Notes under the pieces: generated by a model
Seen by the model: the letters and a program-made list of their open reading frames with translations, nothing else
Databases searched by the model: none
Told to the model about the DNA's origin: nothing
Shown: positions 878 to 18,279 of the stretch, piece by piece
Layout: every line of letters begins with the position of its first letter
Position numbering within the stretch: position 1 is the stretch's first letter
Program-made: the position numbers and the translations under genes
From: an uncultured virus (IMG/VR IMGVR_UViG_3300006990_000018)
Taxonomy: Duplodnaviria; Heunggongvirae; Uroviricota; Caudoviricetes
Virus record (IMG/VR): IMGVR_UViG_3300006990_000018
Length of the DNA: 20,000 nt
Strand: one strand, 5' to 3'

Positions 878-919
878 TAGGCCGCCACCTTAATATAGGT
901 GGTGTTCATAGGACCAAAC
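878..919 (+). promoter_or_regulatory. Class I element copy 1 (TTAATATAGG 890-899; hairpin CGCCACCT/AGGTGGTG)
   Basis: TAGGC...CCTTAATATAGG with ATG exactly 30 nt after the first T of the core (920); archaeal TATA spacing for a leaderless mRNA. Confidence 0.85.
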
Positions 920-3112
920 ATGACCCAACCATGGACCCCCACTACCCAGCGTGCCTATCAGCACCACCTCGGCAACCTCGCCAAAGTGCTGAGCGGACAA
1001 TACGAAGGGAAAGGCCGAGCAGTCAAGCGTTTGAAAGTCGGACCATCGGAGCCATGTGCAACTGACGGCGACACCGTTCACCTGTCCTACCCCATCATGC
1101 AGGGCATCAGCGATAGCATGAACCTCATTCTCACCGAAGCCATCCTCGCCCACGAGGCCGCTGGCCACCTTCGCTACACAAACTTCAACGCTTGGAAAAC
1201 CATGACCGACGCTATCAAGCGTGGTGATGAGGACCGCTTGCTCCACGACTTCGTGAACATTTTTGAGGACGCCCGAGTGAACTACCTTCTCGGCAAGGAC
1301 TTCGCTGGCTCCAAGAAGCGCTTGGATATGGCTCAGAACATGATGATGGCCCAGCACAAGGCTGGCGTCGCAGGCCGTGTCATTGAGGACAAGGAAGCCC
1401 CCAAGATGGGTGTTATCGCCATCGCCACCGAAGCCATTCTCAGCGTTGGCCACTTCATCAACCACCCGAAGGTTATCGCCATGATGGACGAGGCTCGCCC
1501 CCTATTCGTCAATGCTTTGGCCGCCAAGAACACCAACATAGTGGTCAAGGGTGCCCGTGAAGTGCTCGCCATTTACCGCAAGCACTTCCCCGAGGACGAG
1601 ACGGATGGCTCCGAATACGGCGCCTCCACCTCCGATGAGGGAGAAGGTCTCTTCTCGGACGACATGAGCATTGAGAACATTGAGAAGGCGGCGAACTCGC
1701 AGAAGCGAAACAAAGCCAAGGCTCAAGACGCCCCAGCCAAGCGCTTCAAAGACCTCGTGGAAAAAATGCCTGTGGCCGACTCCACTCAAGACGGCGACGG
1801 CCCTGCCGCTGGCGATGCTGACGGCGACGGTGAGTCCGCTGGTGGAGATGCTGGCGACGGCAACGAGACTGGCGACGAGACTGGCGACGACGGCGATGGT
1901 GCTGGCGACGGTGCTGGCGGAGATTCTGCTGGCGGAGATGTTGGCGACGAGACTGGCGACGACGGCAACGGGAAGGGTATGAACGCTCTCCCCGAGACCC
2001 AAGACGACGACTTCGGCTCCTCTGCCGTTGTCCGTGAAGGCGACAACGACGAGGCAGAGTTCCTCGGCGGCTCAACTGGTTCATACGAGGCATTGTTTGA
2101 AGGAGACGACTTGACGGAGAACCTCAAGGCTGAGGCCCAAGCCGTCCTTGACGGTGCCGATGACCTGTGGTTCCCCGAGGACGCAGACCTTGAGGACCTC
2201 ACCGTGGACCATGTGGTTCCCGATTCGGGCGAGCGTGTGAACGACGGTGGCCACCTCATCATCACTCAAGAAAACGAATCGTGGCGAGACGGCATGGCTG
2301 ATGTTGGCGCTTATGATGCGACCAAGGCTCAAACGAAGGGCGCTGTGAAGCGTGTCGCCAAGACCTTGCAGAACCTCATCAAGGGCGCTGACACTCGCTT
2401 CACGACCCACCACAAGCGAGGCAAATTGGACGACCGCCGCCTGTGGGCTGTGCGCTCCTCCGACCGCTTGTTCACCAAGGACAAGACCTACGAGGAGTTC
2501 AAGTTGCGATGCGTCATTCTCATTGACGCCTCGGGGTCCATGAGTGGTGGCCGTGCTCGTCAAGCCGCTAAGGCCGCTGTGGCGCTCTCTGAGGCCATGG
2601 AAGCCGTTGGGGCGGACTACGAGGTCGTGGACTTCAATTCGTCCAATGGAGGCATTCGTGGCTACTCTCAAGGAGCAACCTACATCAATGTGCGAAAGGG
2701 CGCCAACCAATCGCTCACCACGACTGTCAAGCAACAAATCGCCACACCATTCTCGGGTTCCCAAAACTCCGATGGCTACGCCGTCAAATGGGCCATGAAC
2801 CGCACCAAGCAGTTCGGCCAACCCGACGCTCGCCGTATGGTGTTCATCATCAGCGACGGCTCCCCATGTGGCCCTGCTCCACGGGGTATGGGTAGCGGCA
2901 CCCATTTGCAGTCCGTCTTGGCTGAGGCTGAGAAGGACGACTGCATTCTGTTCTCTGTCGGCATCGCTGGAATGAACACGGCCAAGTGGTATGCAAACCA
3001 CGGCCACGCCTCTGTGAAAGACATCAGCACGCTCGCCTCGGACATTCTCGTGCCCCTCAAAATGGCGCTCAAGAAGGCGCTCAAGAAGAAAATGAAGGTA
3101 GTGGTCCAATGA
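920..3112 (+). CDS. CobT-like / MoxR-partner vWA domain protein with N-terminal metallopeptidase-like domain and acidic Gly/Asp linker
   Basis: AHEAAGH and FEDARV motifs at the N-terminus, a G/D-rich low-complexity linker, MIDAS motif DASGSMS and ISDGSP in the C-terminal vWA domain. Start set to ATG 920 by promoter spacing. Confidence 0.8.
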   Translation: MTQPWTPTTQRAYQHHLGNLAKVLSGQYEGKGRAVKRLKVGPSEPCATDGDTVHLSYPIMQGISDSMNLILTEAILAHEAAGHLRYTNFNAWKTMTDAIKRGDEDRLLHDFVNIFEDARVNYLLGKDFAGSKKRLDMAQNMMMAQHKAGVAGRVIEDKEAPKMGVIAIATEAILSVGHFINHPKVIAMMDEARPLFVNALAAKNTNIVVKGAREVLAIYRKHFPEDETDGSEYGASTSDEGEGLFSDDMSIENIEKAANSQKRNKAKAQDAPAKRFKDLVEKMPVADSTQDGDGPAAGDADGDGESAGGDAGDGNETGDETGDDGDGAGDGAGGDSAGGDVGDETGDDGNGKGMNALPETQDDDFGSSAVVREGDNDEAEFLGGSTGSYEALFEGDDLTENLKAEAQAVLDGADDLWFPEDADLEDLTVDHVVPDSGERVNDGGHLIITQENESWRDGMADVGAYDATKAQTKGAVKRVAKTLQNLIKGADTRFTTHHKRGKLDDRRLWAVRSSDRLFTKDKTYEEFKLRCVILIDASGSMSGGRARQAAKAAVALSEAMEAVGADYEVVDFNSSNGGIRGYSQGATYINVRKGANQSLTTTVKQQIATPFSGSQNSDGYAVKWAMNRTKQFGQPDARRMVFIISDGSPCGPAPRGMGSGTHLQSVLAEAEKDDCILFSVGIAGMNTAKWYANHGHASVKDISTLASDILVPLKMALKKALKKKMKVVVQ
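1790..1975 (+). repeat. Low-complexity coding repeats (Gly-Asp linker), including a 24-bp direct repeat GGCGACGAGACTGGCGACGACGGC at 1871-1894 and 1943-1966
   Basis: Seen directly; encodes GDETGDDG twice. Confidence 0.8.
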
Positions 3113-4146
3113 AGCGCTCAGTCCTCATTCCGACTGGCGATGAGCCACCCGAGCGCCGCACAGGCACCTACAACGAGCAAGAAGCCGTGCGCTATGACCT
3201 TGCGTTCACGGCGGTGGATTATCACCCAGCCAAACCGATTCTCGGCTTCGTTGATTTAGCGCACCGCTACACCGAATCATTGAATTGGGGACACTTTGAG
3301 ATGACGCATGGTGGCGTCGTTGAGATGATACACAGTATCATGGAGTCGCCTGCTCTCGGCGAGATTTCCATTGACAACGAAAACGGATGGGTCCGCACCG
3401 ATGAAGCGGTTCAAATCGGCGTCATTTGGCCCAAGGACCGTGTGCCTCAAGGAGTGTTCATGCGTGGCCAAGGATGTGCTCCCAAGCACCGCATGGAGGT
3501 ATGCCTCAAGACCATATCACCACGAGATGCTCACGACTTCCAATCAGTCCTTCAAGGCGAGACGGAGATGGTGTCGGCTCCGAAAAATAACGCAGTTCAC
3601 ACCCGTCTCTCGCAGGTTATGGCCCGTTTGATTGGGTTCATCGCTAACGGCGATTGGGACGAGGGTGGGGCGTTTGGTATTTGTGGCGAAACAGAGAACC
3701 TTGCTGGCTTGATTAACTCCGCTCGGTCGGATGCGTCATCCCCGACAATCGGATGGAAAGGACGCCTCTATGCACCTCAGCGCTTCTCCACGACATCACG
3801 GCGCTACGCTGATGCAGTTCGTCGTGGCTGGGAGATGGGTGATGCTATTTGGACCAATATCCCCTCAGAGTGGGACGGGGAGACGAATGAATGGGAGGCC
3901 TTCCCAAGGGTCGTGGAACACGATGAGAACCCATTCGTTGTTCAAGAACTTCCACCGATTTACAAAGAGCGACGGGCCTCAATCCACATCAACCTCGGTG
4001 GCGACTTTTGGGTGGAAGAGACCCGATGTCCGAAGTGTGCCCAAAGGCTTATCATCCACACTCCCGCCTCTATGTGTCCCAGCGGACACCCTGTTGGGCT
4101 GACTGTCAAGTGCGGCGACTGCAAGCACTCATTCGGTTGGCCTTGA
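3109..4146 (+). CDS. Hypothetical protein with C-terminal Zn-finger (CPKC...CPSGH...CGDC)
   Basis: ATGA overlap with the vWA gene stop; long ORF; paired Cys motifs. Confidence 0.7.
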   Translation: MKRSVLIPTGDEPPERRTGTYNEQEAVRYDLAFTAVDYHPAKPILGFVDLAHRYTESLNWGHFEMTHGGVVEMIHSIMESPALGEISIDNENGWVRTDEAVQIGVIWPKDRVPQGVFMRGQGCAPKHRMEVCLKTISPRDAHDFQSVLQGETEMVSAPKNNAVHTRLSQVMARLIGFIANGDWDEGGAFGICGETENLAGLINSARSDASSPTIGWKGRLYAPQRFSTTSRRYADAVRRGWEMGDAIWTNIPSEWDGETNEWEAFPRVVEHDENPFVVQELPPIYKERRASIHINLGGDFWVEETRCPKCAQRLIIHTPASMCPSGHPVGLTVKCGDCKHSFGWP

Positions 4147-4160
4147 ACGATGTGTCCTTT

Positions 4161-4200
4161 GCGGCACACTTATATATAGGGACCTCCTACGGTCAAATGG
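4161..4200 (+). promoter_or_regulatory. Class I element copy 2 (TATATATAGG 4171-4180)
   Basis: Variant core followed by CCTACG as in copies 4, 5 and 7; GGAG and ATG 4212 downstream. Confidence 0.7.
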
Positions 4201-4211
4201 AGCGGACAAAC

Positions 4212-4505
4212 ATGAAAATCCCCAAGCCACTACGCCAAGCCATCGTGAGCCGACTACGCTCGGAGCCACGACCCCAAAGCGCCAGCGAACTCACCGCACC
4301 CGTGAACGACGCCGTGAAGCCATCCTACCGCAAGACGCCCAAGCAGATGGCGTTCGTGCTCAAGCAGATGAAGCGAGACGGTGATGTCGTCGTGGCGAAG
4401 GAGGTCAAGAACGGCTTGACCGCCCACGGCAACGAGCGCTCTCGTGTGGAATACACCCTCAACCACGAGGTTCACGACCCCGACATTGTGGAGGAGAGCG
4501 AATGA
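4212..4505 (+). CDS. Putative winged-helix DNA-binding protein
   Basis: Helix-helix-recognition helix-hairpin pattern (LRQAIVSRL..SASEL..TPKQMAFVLKQMKRDGDV..VEYTL). Start ATG 4212, alternative 4197. Confidence 0.55.
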   Translation: MKIPKPLRQAIVSRLRSEPRPQSASELTAPVNDAVKPSYRKTPKQMAFVLKQMKRDGDVVVAKEVKNGLTAHGNERSRVEYTLNHEVHDPDIVEESE

Positions 4506-5841: not shown

Positions 5842-5853
5842 TTTCAAGCCTTT

Positions 5854-5894
5854 TAGGCGGCATCTTAATATAGGGGTGCCCCCATGGCTTAACC
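5854..5894 (+). promoter_or_regulatory. Class I element copy 3 (TTAATATAGG 5865-5874)
   Basis: Full TAGGC..TTAATATAGG..GCTTAACC. Position +30 is AAG rather than ATG and is followed by GGAGAG and ATG 5910, suggesting a leadered variant. Confidence 0.85.
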
Positions 5895-5909
5895 AAGGAG
5901 AGATACAAA

Positions 5910-6305
5910 ATGACCTACGCAGACCCACAATTCCTGTTCTATGAGAACGGCGGACCCAGCAAAGAAGAAGGACGAAACGATGAAGCCAACACCATGGCGG
6001 CGCACCTCACGCTTGAGGACCTCACATCGGACCGATACCTCGGAACTACCTACATGACCCACGAACTGCTTCCATCGGATGAAGAGATGATTACAAGCAA
6101 GCACTACTGGAAGGTCTTTGCTCAGAACGACGGCTTCGGACGAGAAGCGTCAATCAATGTGTGGAACGCTGAGGAAGCCTTGCACTTCGGTGCACTCCTC
6201 GTCGCCGCTGGCTACAAGACGGTTTGCTCCTACGATGAGCGCCAAGTCGGCGGAAGCCCGAACTATGTCAAGCACACAAGCAAAGGCCCTGTCTTTGTGA
6301 ACTGA
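5910..6305 (+). CDS. Hypothetical cassette protein
   Basis: 131-aa ORF downstream of a class I element with SD-like AGGAG; no recognisable family. Confidence 0.7.
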   Translation: MTYADPQFLFYENGGPSKEEGRNDEANTMAAHLTLEDLTSDRYLGTTYMTHELLPSDEEMITSKHYWKVFAQNDGFGREASINVWNAEEALHFGALLVAAGYKTVCSYDERQVGGSPNYVKHTSKGPVFVN

Positions 6306-6320
6306 GGCTTGAACGAGCGC

Positions 6321-6354
6321 AACGGTTTCAAACCCCGCCACCCCCTCGGGGGCT
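6321..6354 (+). promoter_or_regulatory. Class II promoter-like motif (ACGG-TTTCAAA-CC) with CCCCC-TC-GGGGG inverted repeat
   Basis: T-rich box starts 29 nt before the terL ATG; the motif recurs before other structural genes. Confidence 0.55.
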
Positions 6355-7878
6355 ATGGCGGAGGGCGAGACGGGCCGATTGTCGGCCGAGCAGGCTCGGG
6401 AAATTGCACTATACCCCGACCGCTGGTCGTGCTTCTTCCGCACCATTGACGGCAAACCGTTCCGATTGGACGAGCGGGACTACCTCGTGGAGATATACCG
6501 CCACTTCGGAGCCTTGGAGAAGAACGACGCCACCAAAATGGTGGTGCTCAAGTGCTCTCGCAAGGTGGAAAAGACCGAGACCATCTGCAACTTGCTCCTC
6601 TATGGCCTACTGAACATACCCTACTTCAACGCCGTTTATACGGCCCCCCGACAGCCACAGGTGAGCCGCTTTGTTGAGGAGCGGTTCAATGGGGCCATGA
6701 TGGGTTCCATCAACAACGGGACCCTTCTGAACGCCCGTATCAAGACCTCCGTGAGCCACCAAACCTTTGATGTGGGAGCCAAGACGCTGAACCATCTCTA
6801 TGCCTACTCCAATTGGGGCGATGCTCACGCCCTGCTTGGGATTGAGGCCGACCTGTGTTGCATTGACGAATACCAAGACTCCGACGGCGATGTCCTACCG
6901 ATGCTGATTGAGATGCTCGCTCAGTCTGACTACAAATGGGTGGTCATATCGGGCACGGCTCGTGAGCAAGGGTCCGAGTTTTGGAAACTGTGGGAGAAGT
7001 CCACGAAGGGTGAATGGGACACCGAGGCTGGAAAGTGGGTCCACACGGACTCCAAGGCGAACATCATCGGCTATCACATTTCACAGGAGATGCACCCCGA
7101 CATCACGGCCAAGGACATAGCGCAGAAGAAGGAGACCTACACACCCCGACGATTCGCCAACGAGGTGCTGGGTGAGTTCTTCGCTGGGTCCACCAAGCCG
7201 CTCACCTTTGACGAGGTGCTCCCCGTCTTTGACCGCGACCGCGATGTGGTCCGAGGGGTCGCTCCACCTGCCGAGACCTACATGGGGATTGATTGGGGGA
7301 AGGAGACGACCGTGGTGATTATTGACGAGCATAGCAACATACTGCAAGCGGTCAAGTTGGACTCTCGTGAGACAGGCGAAGGTGATGAAGTGGAGATTCT
7401 CAAGAAGATGATTGGCGACTATAACTGCGTGCAGGTCGTCGCTGATATTGGCTACGGTGCTCGGCAGGTCAAGGAATTGCAGGAGGAGTTTGGAGAGCGT
7501 GTGCGGTCCTGCTACTACTCGTCTCGGCCAATGACGCCCTACGAATACAAGAAGCGAGACAACAACCGCAACCTCATTTTCATGTGCGTCGTGGACCGCA
7601 CGACCTATGTGGAGCAGACCGTGGAGGCCATCAAGAACCGTGAGGTGAGCCTACCCTATGCTGACGAATCACTCGCATGGGTGGCGCACGAGTGGTGCTC
7701 GCTGACGAGTTCAGCCGAGGCTGATGAGAAGAACACGCGCCCGATTCGGGGGCAGACCTTGACTAAATATGGGCGAGACGGAGACGACCACGCCTTCCAT
7801 TCCCTACTCTATGCTCGTCTGGCGCTTGAAATCAACGACGGGGGCGCTTTGCCCGAGATGCGGACCTTCGGAGCATAA
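6355..7878 (+). CDS. terL: Terminase large subunit
   Basis: Walker A-like VVLKCSRKVEKT, Walker B LCCIDEYQD, motif III ISGT, RNase H-like nuclease YMGIDWG, C-terminal DGDDHAFHS; lies upstream of the portal. Confidence 0.9.
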   Translation: MAEGETGRLSAEQAREIALYPDRWSCFFRTIDGKPFRLDERDYLVEIYRHFGALEKNDATKMVVLKCSRKVEKTETICNLLLYGLLNIPYFNAVYTAPRQPQVSRFVEERFNGAMMGSINNGTLLNARIKTSVSHQTFDVGAKTLNHLYAYSNWGDAHALLGIEADLCCIDEYQDSDGDVLPMLIEMLAQSDYKWVVISGTAREQGSEFWKLWEKSTKGEWDTEAGKWVHTDSKANIIGYHISQEMHPDITAKDIAQKKETYTPRRFANEVLGEFFAGSTKPLTFDEVLPVFDRDRDVVRGVAPPAETYMGIDWGKETTVVIIDEHSNILQAVKLDSRETGEGDEVEILKKMIGDYNCVQVVADIGYGARQVKELQEEFGERVRSCYYSSRPMTPYEYKKRDNNRNLIFMCVVDRTTYVEQTVEAIKNREVSLPYADESLAWVAHEWCSLTSSAEADEKNTRPIRGQTLTKYGRDGDDHAFHSLLYARLALEINDGGALPEMRTFGA

Positions 7879-7987
7879 GTGCCTATGAGATGGGGGTATA
7901 TAATCTTTTGCTACCTATCCTTTTGCTTCCTGTGTTGGTTTGGGCAATCGCTTCGGTCTTAAACCGCATGCTGAACAAGATTCCATC

Positions 7988-8251
7988 ATGGCGGACGCTA
8001 ACGAGGTTCTGTTGGAGATGCTCAAGGGCCTTCGTGATGATGTGGTGGTCATTCGGGACAACCATTTGGCGCACATCGCTGACGACATTCAAGAGATTAA
8101 AACCGAGCAAGTGGCCCAGCGTCGGGACATTGAGGACCTCATGGAGTTCAAGGAGGGCATCAACCAACACATCAAGTCGGGCATCACACGCCTTGTCCTC
8201 ACGGCGGCGGCCCTCACGACCGCCTCGCTCGGCATCCCGATGGCGTTATGA
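7988..8251 (+). CDS. Small coiled-coil protein with C-terminal hydrophobic anchor
   Basis: MADANEVLL... heptad pattern followed by LVLTAAALTTASLGIPMAL; class II motif CGG-TCTTAAA-CC 31 nt upstream of ATG 7988. Confidence 0.7.
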   Translation: MADANEVLLEMLKGLRDDVVVIRDNHLAHIADDIQEIKTEQVAQRRDIEDLMEFKEGINQHIKSGITRLVLTAAALTTASLGIPMAL

Positions 8252-8276: not shown

Positions 8277-8672
8277 ATGGCGAAGCGGCAGTCATCCACG
8301 AGAAGCCTATTCTGGTTTGTCTCTGTCCCCATCGTTATTGCATGGGTGTCGTTTGCTTCGTTGGCCGTCTATAAGTCCGTGGTGGACGGTATGGAAATCA
8401 CCGAGAACCAATTGACGGTCATAGGGATTGTCGGTGGTCCTGCCCTGCTCATCATCACCAACCTGTTGGACCTGTTCAAGCAGGAGACCACGAATGACAT
8501 TCAAAACATGACACCCCAGCACGAGGCCGACATGAAATTGTCCGCCGCACGACTTGACCACGAACTCGCACGAGCCGCCGCTCAGCACGACCACGAGATG
8601 CTCATGCAACGAGAGGGCCGTATGCCCGTGTCCCCTTCCGAGGTCCCACTCCCAGCCGATGAAGAAAACTGA
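8277..8672 (+). CDS. Two-TM membrane protein (holin-like topology)
   Basis: Basic N-terminus, two hydrophobic segments (LFWFVSVPIVIAWVSFASLAVY; LTVIGIVGGPALLIITNLL), charged tail; class II motif G-TTATGAA-CC at -31. Confidence 0.65.
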   Translation: MAKRQSSTRSLFWFVSVPIVIAWVSFASLAVYKSVVDGMEITENQLTVIGIVGGPALLIITNLLDLFKQETTNDIQNMTPQHEADMKLSAARLDHELARAAAQHDHEMLMQREGRMPVSPSEVPLPADEEN

Positions 8673-8713
8673 TAGGCGCTACCTTAATATAGGAGTGGCG
8701 CCTACGACTATAC
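8673..8713 (+). promoter_or_regulatory. Class I element copy 4 (TTAATATAGG 8684-8693; hairpin 8673-8704)
   Basis: TAGGCGCTA-CCT-TAATAT-AGG-AG-TGGCGCCTA; ATG at +30 (8714). Confidence 0.9.
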
Positions 8714-9208
8714 ATGGCGAACAACACGAACAGCCCCGAGGTCCTCGCACGCCTCATTTTGAAGAACGAGTTTGACCGAGACGACTACTCTTGCGGCGTT
8801 GGCGCCGTTGGCTACATCTGCCCCAATGGGACCAACCCCGATGGCGGCATGGACCGAGCCGAGGGTGAGATGCTCGCCGCAGAAGCCAAGGAACTCAAGG
8901 CTGAGTGGTTGGAACTCACGGGCAACGAGTGGACTTGGAAGGACATGGAAGCCGCATTGGCTGAGTGGAAAATCCGAAAGCAAATCGCTGGCGCTGAGCG
9001 CCGCCGCTTGGCTCGTGAGGCTTGGAAGCGCACTCAGCAAGTCGGAACGCAAGTCTCCGAAGAGGAGATGGAGTCCATCGCTGAGGCCGAGTCCATGGTC
9101 GCCTCCATTGAGGCTGGCGAGCGCAAGGCCGCTGAGGACTACGGACAAATCGCTGGGTGGAGCAACTCTGGCTCCCGCAACCGCTTCGGTCAAATGGAGT
9201 GGATGTGA
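8714..9208 (+). CDS. Hypothetical cassette protein (helical/coiled-coil)
   Basis: 164-aa ORF starting exactly 30 nt after the class I core. Confidence 0.8.
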   Translation: MANNTNSPEVLARLILKNEFDRDDYSCGVGAVGYICPNGTNPDGGMDRAEGEMLAAEAKELKAEWLELTGNEWTWKDMEAALAEWKIRKQIAGAERRRLAREAWKRTQQVGTQVSEEEMESIAEAESMVASIEAGERKAAEDYGQIAGWSNSGSRNRFGQMEWM

Positions 9209-9210
9209 AC

Positions 9211-9242
9211 ACCGTTAAGAACTTGGGCGTCAAGCCCTACAC
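9211..9242 (+). promoter_or_regulatory. Class II promoter-like motif (ACCG-TTAAGAA-C)
   Basis: 28 nt before the portal ATG; GTTAAGAAC is also present at 17271. Confidence 0.6.
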
Positions 9243-10682
9243 ATGGCGGAGCGCAAGCGACGAAGGTTCGGTTTCCTTGGGCGTGGTCGCAAGACTGCGG
9301 CCGACGAAGGAGACATGAGCACGAAAGCACTTGCATCCCTGTCTCGCATCGGTCAAGCGACCAGCGTGGATAAACGAACGGGCAAGAAGTCCAGCGGTGG
9401 CCACCAATTGGTTAGCCCCGCCGTCATACGAGACATCAGCCTCAAGTCCGAGGTCATCGCCGCAATTTTGAGACGGACGGTGGACGATGTGCTCGGCAAC
9501 GGTTATCGCTTTGACCTCGCAGAGGGAGTGGAGCGTGGGAACCCCGAGGAACTTGAGCGCCTACGCCTCTTCTTCTCCATGCCGAACCCCGACGATATGG
9601 GGAACGAGTGGCTTGAGTCCCTCGTCTATGACCTCGTGCTCTATGGAGACGCATACCTTGAACTGGATGGGAGCGGAGACACCAGCGACGACGAAGGCTC
9701 CGACTGGACCTTCGGAGGGAACCTCGTCTCCATGTGGAATATCCCAGCCGACACCATGGAGATAATCCCGAACGAGCGTCTCCCGCCCCCTCCCGAGATG
9801 GCGTATGTGCAAACGCTCAATGGAATGAAGCGCCGCTTCTCAGCGAACAAAGTGCTCCACATCGCCAAATACAAGCAGGGTCGTGGCTACGGCACCTCTC
9901 CACTCGTGCCCCTATTGCAGACCATCGCAGGGCAATTGAACCTCTCAAACTACATCAACGAGCAGTTCACGGGAACGCTCCCAAAGACCATCCTCAATGT
10001 GGGCGACATCAGCAACGCTGAGATGAAAACGATGTTGGCCATGCTTGAGCAACAATTGAGCACGGGCAAGTCGCCCTTCGGCTTGGTCGCTGTGAATGGT
10101 GGAACGGGCTTCCAAACCCACCGCCTTATTGACTCCATTAAGGACGGCCAGCACCTTGACCTGCTCTATTACTACCGAGAGGAAATCTGCGCCGTGTTCG
10201 GCATCCCACCCATGAAATTGGGCTGGGTGCAGACAGGCAAGATGAGCAACCCCGAACAACAATTGGAAGCGTGGTATGATGTGGTGGAGTCCTACCACCA
10301 TCGCATCGCCTCCATGATTAACCACCGCATCCTCTCCATCCTTGGTGTCAAGGATTATGTGTGGCGCTTCAACACGATTCGCCCGTCTAAGGAGAAGGTC
10401 ATGGCCGAGGTCGTGCGTGCCCAAGGGCAGGCTATCGCCGCACTTAGGCAAGAGGGGGTTATCACCATCAACGAGGCACGAGCCATACTTGGATATGAAA
10501 TGCTGGAAGATGACAAGGCATCCGACCCATTCTTCATCAGCCCCAAGTTATCCATCAACCAAGGAGCAGAAGCCGCCGCAGAGGCCGCAGGAGACGCTCC
10601 TGTGGACGAGGAACCTTCCGAGGACCCTACACCCCCCGAGGACCGAGAGGAAGCGCTGGGGACGCCGTGGGAGGTGTTTTAG
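9243..10682 (+). CDS. Portal protein (HK97-like)
   Basis: Typical portal motifs: PNP..GNEWLESLVYDLVLYGDAYLE, VLHI..YGTSPL, REEICAVFGIPPMKLG, GVITINEARAILGY. Confidence 0.92.
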   Translation: MAERKRRRFGFLGRGRKTAADEGDMSTKALASLSRIGQATSVDKRTGKKSSGGHQLVSPAVIRDISLKSEVIAAILRRTVDDVLGNGYRFDLAEGVERGNPEELERLRLFFSMPNPDDMGNEWLESLVYDLVLYGDAYLELDGSGDTSDDEGSDWTFGGNLVSMWNIPADTMEIIPNERLPPPPEMAYVQTLNGMKRRFSANKVLHIAKYKQGRGYGTSPLVPLLQTIAGQLNLSNYINEQFTGTLPKTILNVGDISNAEMKTMLAMLEQQLSTGKSPFGLVAVNGGTGFQTHRLIDSIKDGQHLDLLYYYREEICAVFGIPPMKLGWVQTGKMSNPEQQLEAWYDVVESYHHRIASMINHRILSILGVKDYVWRFNTIRPSKEKVMAEVVRAQGQAIAALRQEGVITINEARAILGYEMLEDDKASDPFFISPKLSINQGAEAAAEAAGDAPVDEEPSEDPTPPEDREEALGTPWEVF

Positions 10683-11129: not shown

Positions 11130-11826
11130 ACACATCAAAGCACCAATCTCAGCATCAGTCAAGAAGGCGCTCGCTGAGAAGGCGAAGAAGCACAATGAGA
11201 AGCACACAGCCGCAAGCAAGCGGACCAGCACTCGGACCCTTATTGCCGTTTTTAGGCGTGGTGTGGGTGCCTACAACACGAACCCGCAGAGCGTGCGTCC
11301 GTCCGTTTCATCAGCCGACCAATGGGCGTATGCTCGTGTGAACTCCTTCCTCTATGTTCTCCGCAACGGACGGTTCCGAAGCGGCAAGCATGACACCGAC
11401 CTACTACCCAAGGGGCACCCGCAGTCCACGAAGTCGTTTGACTACGACGAGAAGGCCCCCAAGACGAACTTCCCCAAGCGTGGGGACAATGACAAGGTTA
11501 GTCTCGCCAATAGCGAATATCAGCAGTTCCCCTTGGCCTATGCGCTGAAATTGAGGGAGGAGCACCCCGATATATGGCGCAAGGGCGGCAACATTCTCGG
11601 CAACACGCAGTTCAACCGACTCCGCAAGGTCAAGTCTGGCGGTGTCAAGACTCCGACCGACGAGAAGGCAGTCCGCCTCCGTGAGGCTTGGGCCGCTCGC
11701 CACCTCAAGGACTACCGCCTCGCTGGCGTGGTCGCTCAAATCAAGTGGCTCGTCGTCGGTTCCCGAGGCGTTGGCCACATGAAACAGGTCATTGATGAGG
11801 CCCGAAAGAAAAGCCTTGAGGAATAA
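11119..11826 (+). CDS. Two-domain putative head-associated protein (N-terminal DUF5824-like)
   Basis: AVFRRGVGAY...RP...QWAYARVNSFL motif recalled as DUF5824-like; GGAGGAGG before ATG 11119. Family call from memory. Confidence 0.6.
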   Translation: MEDEHIKAPISASVKKALAEKAKKHNEKHTAASKRTSTRTLIAVFRRGVGAYNTNPQSVRPSVSSADQWAYARVNSFLYVLRNGRFRSGKHDTDLLPKGHPQSTKSFDYDEKAPKTNFPKRGDNDKVSLANSEYQQFPLAYALKLREEHPDIWRKGGNILGNTQFNRLRKVKSGGVKTPTDEKAVRLREAWAARHLKDYRLAGVVAQIKWLVVGSRGVGHMKQVIDEARKKSLEE

Positions 11827-11827
11827 G

Positions 11828-11857
11828 TATATATAGGGGTGCTCCCTACGCTTAACC
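11828..11857 (+). promoter_or_regulatory. Class I element copy 5 (TATATATAGG 11828-11837)
   Basis: ATG at +30 (11858); right half closely matches copy 3. Confidence 0.85.
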
Positions 11858-12154
11858 ATGAAGCAATACTTCACGGACGAAAACGGAACATGGATGGAAG
11901 ATAATTTTCAAGTCGGCGAGCGCTACGGCTCGTCGCAAGTCGTTGTCCTCAAGCGAGGCGAGACCCAATCCAACGGTAGCACCACCGTGGTCTTTCAACA
12001 CCTTGAAACGGGCATGATTGAACAAGTGAGCACGGACCCACACACCTCCGTGTATTGGACCCAAGACAACTGCCGCTACGAGAGCATTTATGTGAGCATG
12101 CTCGGTGGCGTCGTCAAGTCCAACGACCCGAACTACTTCGCTCTCAGTCGGTAG
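11858..12154 (+). CDS. Hypothetical cassette protein (beta-rich)
   Basis: 98-aa ORF starting exactly 30 nt after the class I core. Confidence 0.75.
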   Translation: MKQYFTDENGTWMEDNFQVGERYGSSQVVVLKRGETQSNGSTTVVFQHLETGMIEQVSTDPHTSVYWTQDNCRYESIYVSMLGGVVKSNDPNYFALSR

Positions 12155-12186
12155 GCGTCTTATAGGTGGGGAAACGACCCCAACCC
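12152..12186 (+). promoter_or_regulatory. Degenerate class I element (TAGGCGTC-TTATAGG)
   Basis: TAGGC start; TATAGG ends at 12166 and ATG is 21 nt later (12187), the same spacing as in full copies. Confidence 0.55.
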
Positions 12187-12471
12187 ATGGGACACGGAAA
12201 GAAAAGGCTACACAATCGCGCCCCTCGGTGGGTCATTGAGGGCCTTGATGCTTTGGAAGCGGACCCTCCAAAGGACCCGTGGCCAACTTCATATTTCATT
12301 GAGTTCACCTACGAGTGGAGAACCGCCCGCCTGTCTCAGTATCAAAGCCTGCGATGGCCTCCACGCGATTGGGACAACACACCTAACGAGATGGCCGCCC
12401 TCCTACGAATGAAGGGCTGGACCAATCGGAACAAGGGCACAGGCCGTCCTGCTGTGTGGGAACGCTCATAA
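12187..12471 (+). CDS. Hypothetical cassette protein, possible winged-helix
   Basis: TPNEMAALLRMKGW...G...VW pattern; start from element spacing. Confidence 0.6.
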   Translation: MGHGKKRLHNRAPRWVIEGLDALEADPPKDPWPTSYFIEFTYEWRTARLSQYQSLRWPPRDWDNTPNEMAALLRMKGWTNRNKGTGRPAVWERS

Positions 12472-12495
12472 ACCACATAGGGCGAACCCAAGGCT

Positions 12496-14049
12496 ATGAG
12501 CAGTCTTGACAACGCCACCGTCGTTGATTCACAAGTGTTCTCCGCCATCGCTGGCGACGCTCGTGAAGCCGTGTTTGAATACCGACTCACAATGCCGTTC
12601 AAGGTGGATAAGGAACACAAACCCGACCACGATGACGATGATGTAGTCGTCTATGGACCCGTCTATGTTGGAGACGACACGATGTTGGACCGCCACAAGG
12701 AACTCGTGGACTCAAAGGCCATCATGGACTCGTGGGAGTCCTACTCCAAGAACCCCGTCATTCTGTATAACCACCGCAAGGACTACGGCGTCATTGGCCT
12801 CATGGAAGAGGTTGAAATGGGCGAATACACCAAGCCCGACGGAACCAAAATCCAAGCCGTGTTCGGTCGTGCCCGTATTGATGGCGGCGAGAAGGACATC
12901 ACCCGCAAAATCAACAAAGGGATGCTACGAGCGTTCTCCATCGGCTTCATCGCCAAGGCTGGCGTCAAGCAAGGCGACGGCGACGATGCCTACCTCACCT
13001 TCACCGAAGTGGAGTGGATTGAGACGAGCGTGGTGGATATTCCTGCGTCTCCCAATGCCCTATTCAATGTCAGCAAGTCTCTGATTTCCTACAATTGTTG
13101 TGAGGGTGAATGCTCTTGCGGCAAGAAACACATCGTCGCCGTGGAAGAACGGGATGGTTCGTATGTCATTGAGTTCGGCAAGGCTGAGGAAATGCCCGAA
13201 GAAGGACCCCAAGAAGGGACCGAGATGGGCTTTGACGCCGACCTCATCGTGGAACTAAGCGACACAATCGCTGGATTAGAAGCAAAATTGGCTCATCTCC
13301 AAGAGGTTATTGACGGCGATACCGTTAAAGGCCATGATGATAGCCAACAGGCCATGACCGAGCAAGAAATCGCCGAAGTCGTTGAAGAAGAAGTCGTTGA
13401 ATTGACGGCAGAAGAAGAGACCTTCACCATCAAATCCGAAGAGGCACCCGTTGTTGAGACCAAGGCCGAAGAAGAAACCGAAGAAGAGGCTCCTGTTGAA
13501 GAAGTCGCCGAAGAGGTTGCTGAGGAAGCCGAAGAAGAAGTCGCCGAAGAGGAACTTCCCGAGGAAGTCGTTGAAGAAGTCGCCGAAGCAGAGGAAGAAG
13601 AATCCGCTCCCGAAGTCGTTGAGACCAAGGAAGCCGAAGAAGCCGACACCACCGTCGCAGTCTTGTCCGAAGTCGCCAACTCCCTAACCGCTGTTGAGGC
13701 TGGTCTGAAAGAACTCACCGCTCGTCTTGACGAGACGGAGAGCCTCAAGTCCATGCTCGCTGAGCGGGACGCAACCATCTCAGAACTCACCGAGGCTAAG
13801 GCCGCCGCCGAAGCCGAGGCTGAAATTGAATCCGAAGTCTCCCGCCGCCTTGGCGAGAAGATGAGCGAACTCGGTTTGAGTGCAACCCCAGCGGTCGCCA
13901 AGCCCAAGTCCCTTTCCCCAACGACCAAGACCACCACCAAGGTGAAGTCGGGTCCAACCATGCACGACCCCGTGCCCGAAGTGAGCCAAGGAATGGCTTC
14001 GCTCGGCGACTGGTTGGAAGTCCGTCTTGCAGGCAAGAGGCTCGGTTGA
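12496..14049 (+). CDS. Prohead maturation protease (HK97 family) fused to acidic scaffold
   Basis: DRHKELVD, NPVILYNH (His), RAFSIGF (Ser), IETSVVDIPASPNA; Glu-rich and coiled-coil C-terminal half; class II-like TCATAAA-CC at -30. Confidence 0.9.
   Translation: MSSLDNATVVDSQVFSAIAGDAREAVFEYRLTMPFKVDKEHKPDHDDDDVVVYGPVYVGDDTMLDRHKELVDSKAIMDSWESYSKNPVILYNHRKDYGVIGLMEEVEMGEYTKPDGTKIQAVFGRARIDGGEKDITRKINKGMLRAFSIGFIAKAGVKQGDGDDAYLTFTEVEWIETSVVDIPASPNALFNVSKSLISYNCCEGECSCGKKHIVAVEERDGSYVIEFGKAEEMPEEGPQEGTEMGFDADLIVELSDTIAGLEAKLAHLQEVIDGDTVKGHDDSQQAMTEQEIAEVVEEEVVELTAEEETFTIKSEEAPVVETKAEEETEEEAPVEEVAEEVAEEAEEEVAEEELPEEVVEEVAEAEEEESAPEVVETKEAEEADTTVAVLSEVANSLTAVEAGLKELTARLDETESLKSMLAERDATISELTEAKAAAEAEAEIESEVSRRLGEKMSELGLSATPAVAKPKSLSPTTKTTTKVKSGPTMHDPVPEVSQGMASLGDWLEVRLAGKRLG
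13354..14049 (+). CDS. Putative nested in-frame scaffolding protein (MTEQEIAEVV...)
   Basis: In-frame ATG at the start of the Glu-rich region, preceded 29 nt upstream by ACCG-TTAAAGG-CC, which matches the portal promoter motif. Confidence 0.55.
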   Translation: MTEQEIAEVVEEEVVELTAEEETFTIKSEEAPVVETKAEEETEEEAPVEEVAEEVAEEAEEEVAEEELPEEVVEEVAEAEEEESAPEVVETKEAEEADTTVAVLSEVANSLTAVEAGLKELTARLDETESLKSMLAERDATISELTEAKAAAEAEAEIESEVSRRLGEKMSELGLSATPAVAKPKSLSPTTKTTTKVKSGPTMHDPVPEVSQGMASLGDWLEVRLAGKRLG

Positions 14050-14055
14050 AGGAGA

Positions 14056-14091
14056 AACGGTTAATACCCACGAACACAGGAGAGATGAAAC
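14056..14091 (+). promoter_or_regulatory. Class II promoter-like motif (AACGG-TTAATAC-CC)
   Basis: 31 nt before the MCP ATG; AGGAG also present. Confidence 0.55.
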
Positions 14092-15156
14092 ATGAGCCAA
14101 GATATTGACTTCACCGAACTCACAGAACGAGTCAAGAACGCCCTCGCTGGTGCCGCCGCTGGAACGGGCGCCACTATGCTACCTACGGACACCGCAGACG
14201 AGATTATCGGCATCGTCTATGAGAGAAACTTCATGCGAAGTCTTTTCCCAGCCATGCCCATGAACCGTCGCAAGGTCAATGTGCCCAAGTTGAGCGGGTC
14301 GGTGGACTTCCACCAACAGACTCTCTCCATGACGGACGCAGGCACCGCCGCTTCCGAATCCCGCCACGCAACGGATGAAATCACCTTGGAACTCAAGACC
14401 ATGATTGCGAACATCCCAATCGGCAACTACCTCGTCGCCTACGGTGTGGAAGGTCTCATGTCAGTCCTCCGAGACGACATCGCCTCCCGCCTTGCCTTCA
14501 ACGAGCAATCCTTGCTTCTGAACGGCGACACCGAGACTGGAAGTTCATACGCTGACAACATCAACGGCGCATACGCTTCCCCAGCCAACCTCACAGGTGT
14601 CTCGGGCACAGCCAACGACTACCTGCTTCTCTTTGACGGTCTCCGCAAGTCTGCAACAGCAACCCCTGTCGCAGTCGGAGGAACCTTCGCTCTCAGCCAC
14701 CTCCGAACCGCCATCGCCTCCCTTGGAGTCTATGCGGACAACCGAGACGACTTGGCCTTCATCGTGCCTCGCAACCTTGAGGTCCAACTACTTGGCTTGA
14801 CTGAACTTCAAACCGTGGATAAATACGGCCCTGCCGCAACCATCCTCTCTGGTGAAATCGGTCGCATTTACGGCATCCGTGTCTTTGGAACTGGCGCTCT
14901 CGCCACCAACCTTGATGTGGACGGCGTTTATGACAACACCACAGGCGGTGCTGTGCAGAACACAACCGTGGCTGTCCTCACCCACATCCGCTCCCCAATG
15001 ATTGGAAACCCAACCGTTGCTGAGCGCCGATTCAGCATTGGCTTCCACGACGAGCCAACCAAGGACCGATTCGTGCTCATCCCCAAGCAGGATATTGCCT
15101 TCGGAGTCCGCTACCCCGAAGCCATCTGCCTCTTGACGGGCATCGCTACGGTTTGA
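14092..15156 (+). CDS. Major capsid protein (HK97 fold)
   Basis: Follows the protease; G..LP..A.EII, LRDDIASRLAFNEQSLLLNGD, FDGLRK, GRIYGIRV and terminal YPEAI motifs. Confidence 0.92.
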   Translation: MSQDIDFTELTERVKNALAGAAAGTGATMLPTDTADEIIGIVYERNFMRSLFPAMPMNRRKVNVPKLSGSVDFHQQTLSMTDAGTAASESRHATDEITLELKTMIANIPIGNYLVAYGVEGLMSVLRDDIASRLAFNEQSLLLNGDTETGSSYADNINGAYASPANLTGVSGTANDYLLLFDGLRKSATATPVAVGGTFALSHLRTAIASLGVYADNRDDLAFIVPRNLEVQLLGLTELQTVDKYGPAATILSGEIGRIYGIRVFGTGALATNLDVDGVYDNTTGGAVQNTTVAVLTHIRSPMIGNPTVAERRFSIGFHDEPTKDRFVLIPKQDIAFGVRYPEAICLLTGIATV

Positions 15157-15224
15157 GGCTGACCTCGCTCGGCTTGCTCTCCTTGGACGCTCGCTGGGCG
15201 GGCACCACCATGGGAGGGAACTGA

Positions 15225-15851: not shown

Positions 15852-16348
15852 GCGTGGTGGGCGGCCAACCTCCTCTGGTGGACCCCCACACCTTGCTCAC
15901 GGGGCTTATTGAGGACAATACCCCAGCCGTGGGTGGCTGGACCGTCGTGGTGAACGACGGATGGATTGAGGCCAAGAAGCAAAAGACCTACCAAATCGCC
16001 ATCACCCAAGAATACGGTGAAATCCGAACCGCCAACCTCGGAGGCTCTCAGTCCGACTCCGACGCCGTTCCCCGTGTGGTATCGCAGTTCTTCCTCATCA
16101 CCCTCTTCCACCCCACCCGTGTGGGCGTGTGGACGCTTTACAGAGCGCTCACACAGGTGCTCAACGACCGTAGCCTCACCACGAATGGGGTGAACGGCAA
16201 CACCGACTACAAATGGTGCCGTCTTGCCCGCTCAGACGAGGCTAAGGCCATCAATAGCGTGGATAAGGTGTGCGGTCCCGATAAGCGAGAGGGCGACTGT
16301 CTCGGGTATCGCATGGACCTCACCATGGAACTCCGATGGAATGAATAG
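15848..16348 (+). CDS. Putative tail terminator / neck protein
   Basis: TTGA coupling to the adaptor; size, position and C-terminal beta strand (YRMDLTMELRW) fit. Family not confirmed. Confidence 0.5.
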   Translation: MSVVGGQPPLVDPHTLLTGLIEDNTPAVGGWTVVVNDGWIEAKKQKTYQIAITQEYGEIRTANLGGSQSDSDAVPRVVSQFFLITLFHPTRVGVWTLYRALTQVLNDRSLTTNGVNGNTDYKWCRLARSDEAKAINSVDKVCGPDKREGDCLGYRMDLTMELRWNE

Positions 16349-16386
16349 GCAACACCTTAATATAGGTGGGGGGCATAGGGCAGAAC
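16346..16386 (+). promoter_or_regulatory. Class I element copy 6 (TTAATATAGG 16357-16366; stem CACCT/AGGTG)
   Basis: Its TAG is the upstream stop codon; ATG at +30 (16387). Confidence 0.88.
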
Positions 16387-16602
16387 ATGATGATTCCCCT
16401 GCCCGACTACATCAAAGCCGCCATTGAAGCCCACGCCGAAGAGTTCCTCAAGAGAGCCAACGGCAAGGGATTCATCCGATTCACCAAAGGAGACGCCTAC
16501 TCGTGGTGGAGCCACTTCTTTGACCGAACGGGGTGGAACCACTACTGCGCCTACCTCGTGAACGCCAACGGACCATTTCAAGAAGGGACGGTGGAAGCAT
16601 GA
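16387..16602 (+). CDS. Hypothetical cassette protein
   Basis: MMIPLPDY... starts 30 nt after the class I core. Confidence 0.75.
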   Translation: MMIPLPDYIKAAIEAHAEEFLKRANGKGFIRFTKGDAYSWWSHFFDRTGWNHYCAYLVNANGPFQEGTVEA

Positions 16603-16853
16603 AGCGACGAACCTCTTGCCCTCCCTACACCTGCAAGACCAACGGTCGGACCTACAAAATCAAGGACAACGGCACTTCTCGGATTCCCCCAAGGATTGAG
16701 TGGACGGGCAGAGTCCGAACCGTCATTGGCCACTACGCCTGCTTCAACTGCGGTGGCTATTGTGTTCCTCCGTATCACCCCGAAGGTGAATACCGACCCA
16801 AGACGGCTGAGGAAATCGCACTCGTTCCCGAGGAACTACGCCATACCCTTTGA
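16599..16853 (+). CDS. Small Cys-rich protein (CPPYTC...CFNCGGYC)
   Basis: ATGA coupling to the upstream cassette gene. Confidence 0.65.
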   Translation: MKRRTSCPPYTCKTNGRTYKIKDNGTSRIPPRIEWTGRVRTVIGHYACFNCGGYCVPPYHPEGEYRPKTAEEIALVPEELRHTL

Positions 16854-16861
16854 GCGGTGGG

Positions 16862-16891
16862 TTAATATAGGAGTGGCGCCTACGATTAACC
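16862..16891 (+). promoter_or_regulatory. Class I element copy 7 (TTAATATAGG 16862-16871)
   Basis: 24-bp identity to copy 4; ATG at +30 (16892). Confidence 0.9.
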
Positions 16892-17269
16892 ATGGCGACC
16901 CACGCATACCACACGGCCCAAATCGTTGAAACCTTGAACCTCGTGCCCCACGGCTCCACCGTGGCGGCTGACTTGAACTGCTGGATTGGCCTTCAAGCCT
17001 TGGACGAGAATGCTCCCGTGGTGTATCACAACTGGGGCATCATCCGAGACCACTTCACAGGCGAGGAGACTGAAATGGTCATCCTCTCTGCCGCTGACGG
17101 CTTCCGTGAGTGGTCCCGCTCGGGCATCATGGAAAAAGTGCACATCGCCAACGCCATTCGCATGGAGCGCTCCGCAGGCACCCGCATGGCCATCGCTGGC
17201 GGTATGATGCTTCGTGGCTTCAACTCCACCGAGGTCAAAGACGCATACCGAGCCGTTTGCCGCCGATGA
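16892..17269 (+). CDS. Hypothetical cassette protein
   Basis: 125-aa ORF starting 30 nt after the class I core. Confidence 0.78.
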   Translation: MATHAYHTAQIVETLNLVPHGSTVAADLNCWIGLQALDENAPVVYHNWGIIRDHFTGEETEMVILSAADGFREWSRSGIMEKVHIANAIRMERSAGTRMAIAGGMMLRGFNSTEVKDAYRAVCRR

Positions 17270-17301
17270 GGTTAAGAACCATCTTCGGGTTTGAACGGTT
17301 C

Positions 17302-17679
17302 ATGGCTACCAAGAAAAAGGCTCCAAAGGCCGCTAAGGAACCCAAGGAAGAAGTCGTTGAAGTGCCCAAGGAAGAGGTCAAGGAAGAGGTCAAGAAGGCC
17401 GCTCCCAAGAAGGCCGCTCCCAAGAAGGCCGCCATGAAGGTCGGCTTGGAACACCTCCCCGACCCCGACTTGGACCCAATGCAACTCGCTGAGTTCATCA
17501 CCGCTTCCTATCACGCTATGCTGGGACGAGACCCCTTGGATGTTGAGATGACTCACCACCTGCGAACCGTGGAAATACACAAGCGACCACGAGCCGACAT
17601 TCACACCGATGTCCGCAAGGGTGGCGAGTATCAAGGCCGCCACGCTCTCAAGGGCGAAGGAACCCTGCTCGGTGAGTGA
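17302..17679 (+). CDS. Lys/Ala/Pro/Glu-rich protein with C-terminal DUF4214-like helical domain
   Basis: KKAAPKKAAPKKAA repeats followed by EFITASYHAMLGRDP..E....EY; class II motif G-TTAAGAA-CC at -30. Confidence 0.7.
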   Translation: MATKKKAPKAAKEPKEEVVEVPKEEVKEEVKKAAPKKAAPKKAAMKVGLEHLPDPDLDPMQLAEFITASYHAMLGRDPLDVEMTHHLRTVEIHKRPRADIHTDVRKGGEYQGRHALKGEGTLLGE

Positions 17680-17689
17680 GGGGGCCTCC

Positions 17690-18241
17690 GTGCCCCACAA
17701 GGACCCTGTGAAGCGAAAAGCGTATCAGAAGCGCTACCAAGAAGGATGGTATGCCCAAAACGGCGACCATCGCCGTGAACAGGTTCGTCGTCGTCGTCGT
17801 GCCCTCAAGCAACGATACCGTGAGTTCAAAAAGACGCTCTCCTGCGAGAAGTGTGGCTTGAGTGGGGAAGAGTCCCCATGGGCACTTGACTTCCACCACA
17901 GGGACGAGGACAGGCAGAAAAAGACCACCTCCGTCTCTCACCTCGTCTCGGGTGGCTACGGTTGGGACCGAATCATGGAGGAGGTTGCTTTGTGTGATGT
18001 CATCTGCGCTAATTGTCATCGCAAGGAGCACTACGAAGAACACATGGAGAAAATAGAGCAGGGCCTTGAAGGCGAGGACCTGTTGCCTACTACAATCAAT
18101 AACCCCGAGTTCGCACGGATGGGTCGCAAGAAGCAACGACGACGACATCGCCTTGAGCGACGAAAAGCGGCTGAGAAGGCGCTTGAGAAGCACGGGGGGC
18201 GCGACTACATCGCAGGTCCAAGCCCCAAGGAAGAACAGTAG
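17690..18241 (+). CDS. HNH endonuclease
   Basis: CEKCG...ALDFHH...EEVALCDVICANCHRKEH signature; GTG start approximate. Confidence 0.85.
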   Translation: MPHKDPVKRKAYQKRYQEGWYAQNGDHRREQVRRRRRALKQRYREFKKTLSCEKCGLSGEESPWALDFHHRDEDRQKKTTSVSHLVSGGYGWDRIMEEVALCDVICANCHRKEHYEEHMEKIEQGLEGEDLLPTTINNPEFARMGRKKQRRRHRLERRKAAEKALEKHGGRDYIAGPSPKEEQ

Positions 18242-18279
18242 GCGCAACCTTAATATAGGTGTGCGTGTCATGGCTATAC
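18239..18279 (+). promoter_or_regulatory. Class I element copy 8 (TTAATATAGG 18250-18259; hairpin GCGCAACCT/AGGTGTGCGT)
   Basis: Its TAG is the HNH stop codon; ATG at +30 (18280). Confidence 0.9.

Follow-up and report, generated by a model that had tools for sequence, protein, structure and literature searches.

A repeated intergenic element of an uncultured marine tailed virus has the architecture of an archaeal core promoter for leaderless mRNAs

The intergenic repeats of the archaeal tailed virus HF2 carry promoters. Class I repeats (56-58 bp) and class II repeats (29 bp) are active by reporter assay and primer extension, and their conserved flanks are presumed binding sites for regulators of the virus (PMC8707807). 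In the haloarchaeal myovirus HGTV-1, many open reading frames (ORFs) are preceded by a TATA-like region together with an inverted repeat, which its description likens to PeSLs (PMC3950731). PeSLs are composite stem-loop terminator/promoter motifs of T4-type phages that mediate modular shuffling (PMC4122927). In SIRV2 and other archaeal viruses, early and anti-defence genes share a conserved regulatory sequence around a strong core of TFB recognition element (BRE) and TATA box, and in some archaeal viruses inverted repeats overlapping the BRE are proposed as repressor sites (PMC11065993). The present report describes a repeated element in a stretch of 20,000 nucleotides (the window) of the uncultured virus IMGVR_UViG_3300006990_000018. 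The element, termed class A, is read with a probability of about 0.72 as a strong core promoter of archaeal type, from which a tailed virus of marine archaea would start leaderless mRNAs.

The window belongs to a marine tailed virus of ~80 kb and contains 28 ORFs; every large one lies on the + strand. The 10-nt core of the element, TTAATATAGG, is found six times without mismatch, always on the + strand and always between genes. If up to two mismatches are allowed, 10 matches are present (3.21 expected), a number reached by one of 200 shuffles. Three window copies are degenerate, and a tenth is truncated where the window ends (Table 1). The first T of the core is located exactly 30 nt 5' of the ATG that opens the next ORF in seven of the nine complete copies, and the intergenic gaps at the copies with this spacing measure 31-42 nt. 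Class A lies before a VWA gene and before eight small ORFs of 71-164 amino acids (aa) without a family match.

Relatives of the terminase large subunit (TerL) are present on 82 stretches of IMG/VR contigs, 80 of which were retained; several contigs measure 78-83 kb. Relatives of the major capsid protein (MCP) comprise 217 proteins from marine data including Tara. Two relatives are complete (81,676 bp with terminal repeats, and 80,697 bp). Copies of the element were collected from the loci of these relatives and, for the virus itself, from the window. A position matrix anchored at the ATG yielded 108 unique sites in the family loci; these occur 195 times on the gene strand and never on the opposite one. 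A second scan of viral contigs added at least 11 copies, and a metagenome scan at least about two family members among the loci listed with a G+C content of 0.47 or higher. Family membership was decided by locus origin and G+C content; a threshold on the flank score was dropped because true copies scored lower than chance ones. The final set consists of 120 unique copies in 86 ortholog clusters, and its consensus is cluster-weighted.

Counted from the ATG, the consensus starts with a stop-like T-R-R (-41 to -39) and a BRE-like GCGAWA (-38 to -33), followed by two pyrimidine-rich positions and by TTWATATA (-30 to -23). The 3' half comprises GG (-22/-21), G (-19), a C-rich stretch, TA (-11/-10) and AAAC before the ATG. 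In the BRE-like block the frequencies are G -38 0.54, C -37 0.72, G -36 0.68, A -35 0.64 and A -33 0.65, and position -34 is shared by A (0.33) and T (0.40). The T or A of the TATA block reaches 0.89-0.98 at -29 to -23 except for -28 (T 0.57, A 0.32). The G-rich block is strongly conserved (G -22 0.96, G -21 0.91, G -19 0.89). Positions -36 to -31 and -20 to -14 took no part in selecting copies. The start-proximal frequencies (T -11 0.79, A -10 0.86, C -1 0.91, with A at +1) lean high, since -11/-10 and -1 belonged to the selection matrix.

A stop triplet begins at -41 in 51% of the clusters and at any other offset in no more than 11%. This stop is the true end of the upstream ORF in 25 of 86 clusters. 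The conserved TAGGC is the stop codon plus the start of the BRE, because the element sits directly behind the upstream stop codon.

Haloarchaeal promoters have a TATA box centred at -27/-28, the BRE CGAAA and WW at -10/-11, and in leaderless genes the same distances apply to the start codon (PMC2151090; PMC4983044). In Thermococcus an 8-bp TATA box is located near -27, an A/T element near -10 and a pyrimidine at -1, and leaderless mRNAs have ATG in 94.9% (PMC5316973). The viral element is built likewise. Its A/T box is centred at ~-26.5, a distance counted to the ATG and not to a mapped start, and a CGAAA-like block adjoins the box upstream. TA is present at -11/-10, a pyrimidine at -1 and the A of ATG at +1, and the arrangement is strictly confined to one strand. 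The A/T core, named a TATA box in the initial annotation, is one according to consensus and spacing. Because all these features of haloarchaeal and Thermococcus promoters recur and the core of HGTV-1 is nearly the same, the element is read as an archaeal core promoter. Compared with cellular archaeal promoters, the viral copies are far more uniform (the 10-nt core is identical in six window copies), possess strong extra G at -22, -21 and -19 and are packed onto the upstream stop codon.

Factor binding, start site and promoter activity can be predicted from this architecture. The TBP, TFB and RNA polymerase of the host would read the element, with TBP placed on TTAATATA at -30 to -23 and TFB contacting the BRE-like GCGAWA (-38 to -33), which would fix the direction. 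The DNA would melt around the TA at -11/-10. Transcription would start at the A of the ATG, preceded by C at -1, and would yield a leaderless mRNA.

The geometry of the HGTV-1 motif was read directly from the genome (L452, NC_021328: 128-143.6 kb, minus strand). In the proximal promoters an almost identical core precedes the ATG by ~30 nt: YTTAW is found at -36 to -22 in 22 of 33 upstream regions and CGRMA upstream in 20 of 33. A sequence-conserved inverted repeat is located directly before a GGTATATAAA-like box in 17 of 33 regions, and 10 of these 17 repeats fold to at least 6 bp. Small ORFs of HGTV-1 are preceded by a tandem of two TATA-like boxes, the distal one and a separate BRE/TATA ~30 nt before the ATG. 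HGTV-1 and the window have in common that, in a tailed virus of archaea, many small ORFs follow a conserved motif with links to transcription and to the shuffling of genes. In HGTV-1, however, the inverted repeat is conserved in sequence and stands upstream of the distal TATA-like box, not around the TATA box.

HF2 shares repeated conserved intergenic blocks with BRE, TATA box and initiator and the presence of two sequence classes. The sequences are unrelated, though. HF2 activity was measured, whereas the window element is known from sequence alone, and most window copies are predicted to start leaderless mRNAs for small ORFs that lie within the structural module. In SIRV2-type viruses a near-identical BRE/TATA core with conserved flanks is also found before many small single genes of one virus; these are crenarchaeal viruses with expression data, whereas the window genes lie inside the morphogenesis module. 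PeSLs resemble class A in that many same-strand regulatory motifs flank small variable ORFs and indels or replacements end at the motif. A PeSL, however, is a stem-loop followed by a sigma-70 promoter (-35/N17/-10) in bacteriophages. Here the promoter is of archaeal type and has no terminator part, and the stem, where present, encloses the TATA box. The likeness to PeSLs suggested by the initial annotation thus holds for the breaks in homology between relatives at the element, but not for the architecture, in which both a -35 box at 16-18 bp and a T-run are absent.

The gene content of the relatives bears on the host. The clamp loader of one relative matches archaeal RFC small subunits with E 2.5e-68 and bacterial gamma with 4e-8. 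A family B DNA polymerase (PolB) is present in four of five relatives, and a primase resembling the archaeo-eukaryotic primases (AEP) is encoded in relatives as well. Magroviruses of marine group II archaea (Poseidoniales) are described as having a linear genome of ~100 kb with a halovirus-like structural module, DNA polymerase, clamp loader, AEP, MCM and RadA (PMC5434244). The relatives measure 80.7-81.7 kb, one of them with terminal repeats, and their PolB, RFC and AEP-like primase would fit this group. Judged by the gene set of the relatives, the virus looks magrovirus-like because the archaeal-type RFC clamp loader occurs together with a family B DNA polymerase. Neither a TBP nor a TFB gene was detected in five relatives, with controls positive in four archaea, and tRNA genes were not found in relatives. 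A phage collection contained no DNA near-identical to the window, and its TerL protein matches were all below 60% identity (best 31%). No promoter description for the magrovirus group was found in the literature; the main texts of PMC5434244 and PMC11706807 contain no passage on promoters, TATA or hairpins. As an archaeal viral core promoter the element is of an ordinary kind; what is new is its occurrence in this group of uncultivated marine viruses.

The flanks of the TATA box are partly palindromic (CACC..GGTG type) and may, with rather low probability, be the operator of a virus-encoded dimeric regulator that switches the class-A promoters together. Such an operator would add to the promoter reading and does not exclude it. 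Arms of clade copies surpass internally shuffled arms (z 3.4, 26 clusters; z 3.5, 12 clusters), and the true register pairs 55.6-59.6% of the cells compared with 32-47% in slid registers. Since these controls are exceeded and covariation is absent (see below), the complementarity resides in the clade consensus and not in copy-specific covariation; this is as expected for a protein site. Both Aca8 at SIRV2 early promoters (PMC11065993) and regulator binding at the HF2 intergenic repeats (PMC8707807) have been proposed as such arrangements. The window encodes a 97-aa winged-helix-like protein with 28 homologs in the virus family, on contigs of up to 81 kb. Its model (pLDDT 84) has three helices and a beta hairpin, and its Foldseek matches are regulators of the PadR, ArsR and Fur types as well as the pSSVx protein Stf76. 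These fold matches are weak (E 1.7e-3 to 5e-2, TM 0.5-0.57), as is Pfam HTH_20, which stays under the cut-off (E 0.07). The protein is a candidate for a viral transcription regulator of the class-A promoters. The consensus palindrome is itself weak, and it is absent in distant relatives: copies with other cores (85 copies, 62 clusters) have z -0.4 and 0.5 for stem extension and duplex energy in the arm swap described below, and the whole family has z 1.2 against internally shuffled arms. The centre, TTAATATA, is asymmetric.

Selection might, at least in some copies, favor the structure itself, a hairpin or cruciform whose loop holds the TATA box, although this is improbable. Such a structure would work either at the DNA level, in promoter opening or recombination, or at the RNA level, as a stem by which the transcript from upstream is terminated or protected. 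The five inverted repeats reported in the initial annotation are present, and their G-T pairs and 3' bulges match its description. Segments of 38 nt were folded as DNA single strands and compared with 200 dinucleotide shuffles (Table 1). Three of the five repeats fold better than the shuffles (z -2.0 to -3.2). Four of the nine complete window copies have no TATA-enclosing stem. One of them, with its core at 16862, has a 3' arm identical to that of the 8673 copy, but the 5' flank is non-complementary and no stem results. The L103 ortholog of the 8673 stem drops from 12 to ~5 pairs without compensation, and low-GC orthologs of the 883 copy retain the CCT/AGG core only.

Copy-specific pairing was assessed by joining the 5' arm of every copy to 3' arms taken from copies that are not its orthologs. 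The results are mixed and mostly null. RNA parameters gave z -2.0, -1.7 and -0.9 for arm lengths of 10, 14 and 18 in the first set of 73 copies. In the final set, stem extension has z 1.7 (100 of 2000) and duplex energy z 1.2 (250 of 2000). Exact-core copies (35 copies, 26 clusters) reach z 2.9 for extension (20 of 5000) and 0.9 for energy; where CC precedes the core (18 copies, 12 clusters) the values are 1.55 and 0.54. Along every antidiagonal in 108 copies, columns pair as often as the product of their frequencies predicts (differences from -0.018 to +0.021).

Pairs were also counted in 35 clade copies (33 distinct) after the 3' letters had been shuffled 500 times among the copies. A continuous helix of 12 pairs has 55.6% of its cells paired versus 56.5 +/- 1.2 in the shuffles (397 of 500 as high) and a covariation score of 0.131 versus 0.145 (434 of 500). 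With a 2-nt 3' bulge the values are 59.6% versus 60.5% (410 of 500) and 0.134 versus 0.157 (464 of 500). Pairing and covariation in the 33 distinct copies are thus no higher than in shuffled controls, essentially the result that the initial annotation had named as speaking against its idea. That the outer arms vary and yet keep pairing is not a general property of the element, and selection of structure over sequence is not supported for its flanks: the 5' arm is the conserved BRE-like GCGAWA and the 3' arm the conserved G-rich block (-22, -21, -19).

Several observations weigh against the promoter reading or in favor of a selected hairpin. Contiguous stems of exact-core copies are longer than those of swapped arms (4.69 versus 3.97; 53 of 10000 permutations), also when the window copies are left out (21 clusters, 4.24 versus 3.76; 383 of 10000). 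Six clusters have at least eight pairs (2.47 expected; 122 of 10000), and the 21 clusters without a window copy contain three long stems (1.3 expected; 1037 of 10000). In the first set (73 copies, 51 clusters) the DNA duplex energy has z -2.1, -2.6 (13 of 2000) and -1.7 for arms of 10, 14 and 18, and another early test stood at z 2.6. In close orthologs, two changes that each affect one side of the 883 stem preserve pairing (G-T to A-T, C-G to T-G), and the L082 ortholog of the 18242 repeat, inspected by eye, still has a long stem in a shifted register. Two RNA-labelled runs with small parts of the virus are available as contigs only and give no starts or ends; one of them may be DNA. No CRISPR or provirus link to a host was found, and bins of metagenome-assembled genomes (MAGs) with relatives carry an archaeon label in one case and a Legionellales label in another. 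These are the capsid-gene relatives L203 and L204, whose contigs are binned as 'Methanobacteriota archaeon' (67% identity) and 'Legionellales bacterium' (81%). Both are probably mis-binned viral contigs, and for this reason the labels do not count as host evidence. The excess in run length is a weak hint, because ~16 tests were run and p values of 0.005-0.04 carry little weight among them.

Under the promoter reading, the hairpin potential would be a by-product. The BRE-side consensus of the clade (..CGAYACC) is partly complementary to the G-rich GGTGKGS.. after the TATA box, which would be why some copies form long stems; these would arise by chance or drift. With few copies at hand, conserved flanks of a promoter that are partly complementary can look like arms that vary and still pair.

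The known hairpin systems to which the element had been compared fit poorly. Hairpin promoters of the N4 type have a stem of 5-7 bp and a 3-nt loop and are read by the virion RNA polymerase; here the loop has at least 6 nt and holds the TATA box. Integron attC sites are not matched either: covariation is absent in the 33 copies, bulges are absent or differently placed among copies, and neither the 28 ORFs of the window nor the 75 of the relative G004 include an integrase family. An RNA terminator would differ from the pentaU terminators of haloarchaea (PMC2151090), as no T-run (at least four T) follows any of the five stems. A comparison of the window with Rfam gave no family.

A bacterial sigma-70 -10 box or a promoter of a phage single-subunit RNA polymerase (T7-like ...TATA/GG) in a bacteriophage is very unlikely: TATAGG superficially recalls the T7-type start region, ~20 conserved bases precede it and one MAG bin is labelled Legionellales as stated above, but the -35 box is lacking, the 30-nt distance to the ATG, C -1 and TA -11/-10 suit archaeal leaderless promoters, the replication genes are archaeal-type, and no T7-like RNA polymerase domain was detected in five relatives, a weak negative since the control of that search was positive nowhere.

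Table 1. Class-A copies and other features of the window. Fold columns give the z score of the 38-nt segment and, in brackets, the number of shuffles as good.
Feature	Coordinates	Strand	Core	Start and gene	Inverted repeat and fold	Remarks
Class-A copy 1	879..922	+	TTAATATAGG 890-899	ATG 920, VWA/CobT-like gene, 730 aa; core-ATG 30 nt	883-904; 8-bp stem, -5.6 kcal/mol, z -2.09 (4/200)	in-frame TAG right after TGA stop of ORF 32-877, then BRE-like block
Class-A copy, degenerate	4160..4214	+	TATATATAGG 4171-4180	ATG 4212, 97-aa winged-helix-like protein; in-frame ATG also at 4197	no TATA-enclosing stem, z -0.01	
Class-A copy	5854..5912	+	TTAATATAGG 5865-5874	gene start 5910	5859-5880; proposed stem not the minimum-energy fold, z +0.80 (158/200)	short leader with AGGAG-like stretch before gene start
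Class-A copy	8673..8716	+	TTAATATAGG 8684-8693	ATG 8714, 164-aa ORF	8673-8704; strongest, -8.4 kcal/mol, z -3.18 (1/200)	
Class-A copy, degenerate	11817..11860	+	TATATATAGG 11828-11837	ATG 11858, 98-aa ORF	no TATA-enclosing stem; different small hairpin, z -0.90	homology to three relatives stops here
Class-A copy, degenerate	12146..12189	+	TATAGG 12161-12166, aligned core start 12157	ATG 12187, 94-aa ORF	no TATA-enclosing stem, z +0.81	
Class-A copy	16346..16389	+	TTAATATAGG 16357-16366	ATG 16387, 71-aa ORF	16353-16368; 5 bp only, marginal, z -1.38 (20/200)	
Class-A copy	16851..16894	+	TTAATATAGG 16862-16871	ATG 16892, 125-aa ORF	no TATA-enclosing stem, z +0.28	
Class-A copy	18239..18282	+	TTAATATAGG 18250-18259	ATG 18280, 78-aa ORF	18242-18266; 9 bp, 1-nt bulge, -5.7 kcal/mol, z -2.03 (10/200)	TAG of HNH gene within TAGGC
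Class-A copy, cut-off start	19990..20000	+				relatives (L031) go on with CC + TTAATATAGG, ATG 30 nt further
Second-class promoter	6322-6357					
Second-class promoter	7955-7990			ORF 7988		
Second-class promoter	9210-9245					
Second-class promoter	12463-12498					
Second-class promoter	14059-14094					
Second-class promoter	17269-17304			ORF 17302		
97-aa protein gene	4212-4505	+				
HNH endonuclease gene	17690-18241	+		GTG start 10 nt past preceding ORF		
Acidic low-complexity run	1786-1980	+		VWA protein		GD/AGD repeats
Acidic low-complexity run	13360-13640	+		protease/scaffold protein		E-rich, EEVAEE-like

The class-A copies coincide with the ends of homology between relatives. In blastn comparisons with six relatives, 7 of 28 internal homology breakpoints are located within -25 to +60 of a class-A core (1.08 expected, binomial 7.5e-5); these seven rows correspond to five distinct sites, and events are fewer than rows. 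The breakpoints at class-A promoters are found at 5918, 8665, 11829-11860, 12214 and 16898 (versus L154, L148, L185, L103 and L098), and further breakpoints are present at the 3' ends of these cassettes (6303/6310, 9205/9242, 12415/12442). L148 is without exactly one promoter and its ORF (8666-9204). In L098, with 99% identity upstream, a different gene follows the 16862 promoter. In close relatives, unrelated ORFs replace the genes after the 11828 and 16862 promoters. The class-A promoters appear to bound swappable small-gene cassettes in a PeSL-like manner, with recombination deduced from the breakpoints. Joints and loose ends at 877-899, 16849-16876 and 18261 in a DNA run (X2) were not counted as rearrangements; they are short matches among promoter copies.

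A further, tentative proposal treats class A as portable regulatory cassettes. The near-identical promoter of ~45 nt, repeated on a single strand at intervals of ~2 kb, would act as a homology patch, and its flanks would be the operator of the 97-aa protein. This possibility is held to be less probable than its negation.

The window products include the VWA/CobT-like protein, TerL, the portal, a prohead protease, an HK97-type capsid protein, a head-tail adaptor and an HNH endonuclease. Besides class A there is a weaker class of promoter (GGTTAAGAACC, GGTTAATACCC or GTTTCAAACC), which is found ~30 nt before the ATG of TerL, portal, protease, MCP and two small ORFs. The MCP gene also has an AGGAG-like leader. 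The use of two promoter classes for different gene sets recalls the repeats of classes I and II in HF2. The HNH gene is situated within the structural module, and its TAG stop is part of the next class-A promoter. Long acidic low-complexity runs are present in the VWA protein and in the protease/scaffold protein. Contigs of the RNA runs pile up on the latter with many loose ends, probably due to cross-matching of repeats.

The BRE, TATA box, -10 element and predicted leaderless starts of haloarchaeal type provide independent support for an archaeal host at the level of sequence. For viruses known from metagenomes only, with a host that is inferred, the promoter gives a simple rule by which transcription units and the starts of genes can be called. 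Since promoters are linked to the boundaries of cassettes, they also indicate which of the genes are accessory. If the proposal of portable cassettes is true, small accessory genes, possibly with anti-defence functions, would be inserted, deleted and swapped via their promoters inside a conserved structural module, and the arrangement would be the archaeal equivalent of PeSL-mediated shuffling, coupled with control of the Aca type.

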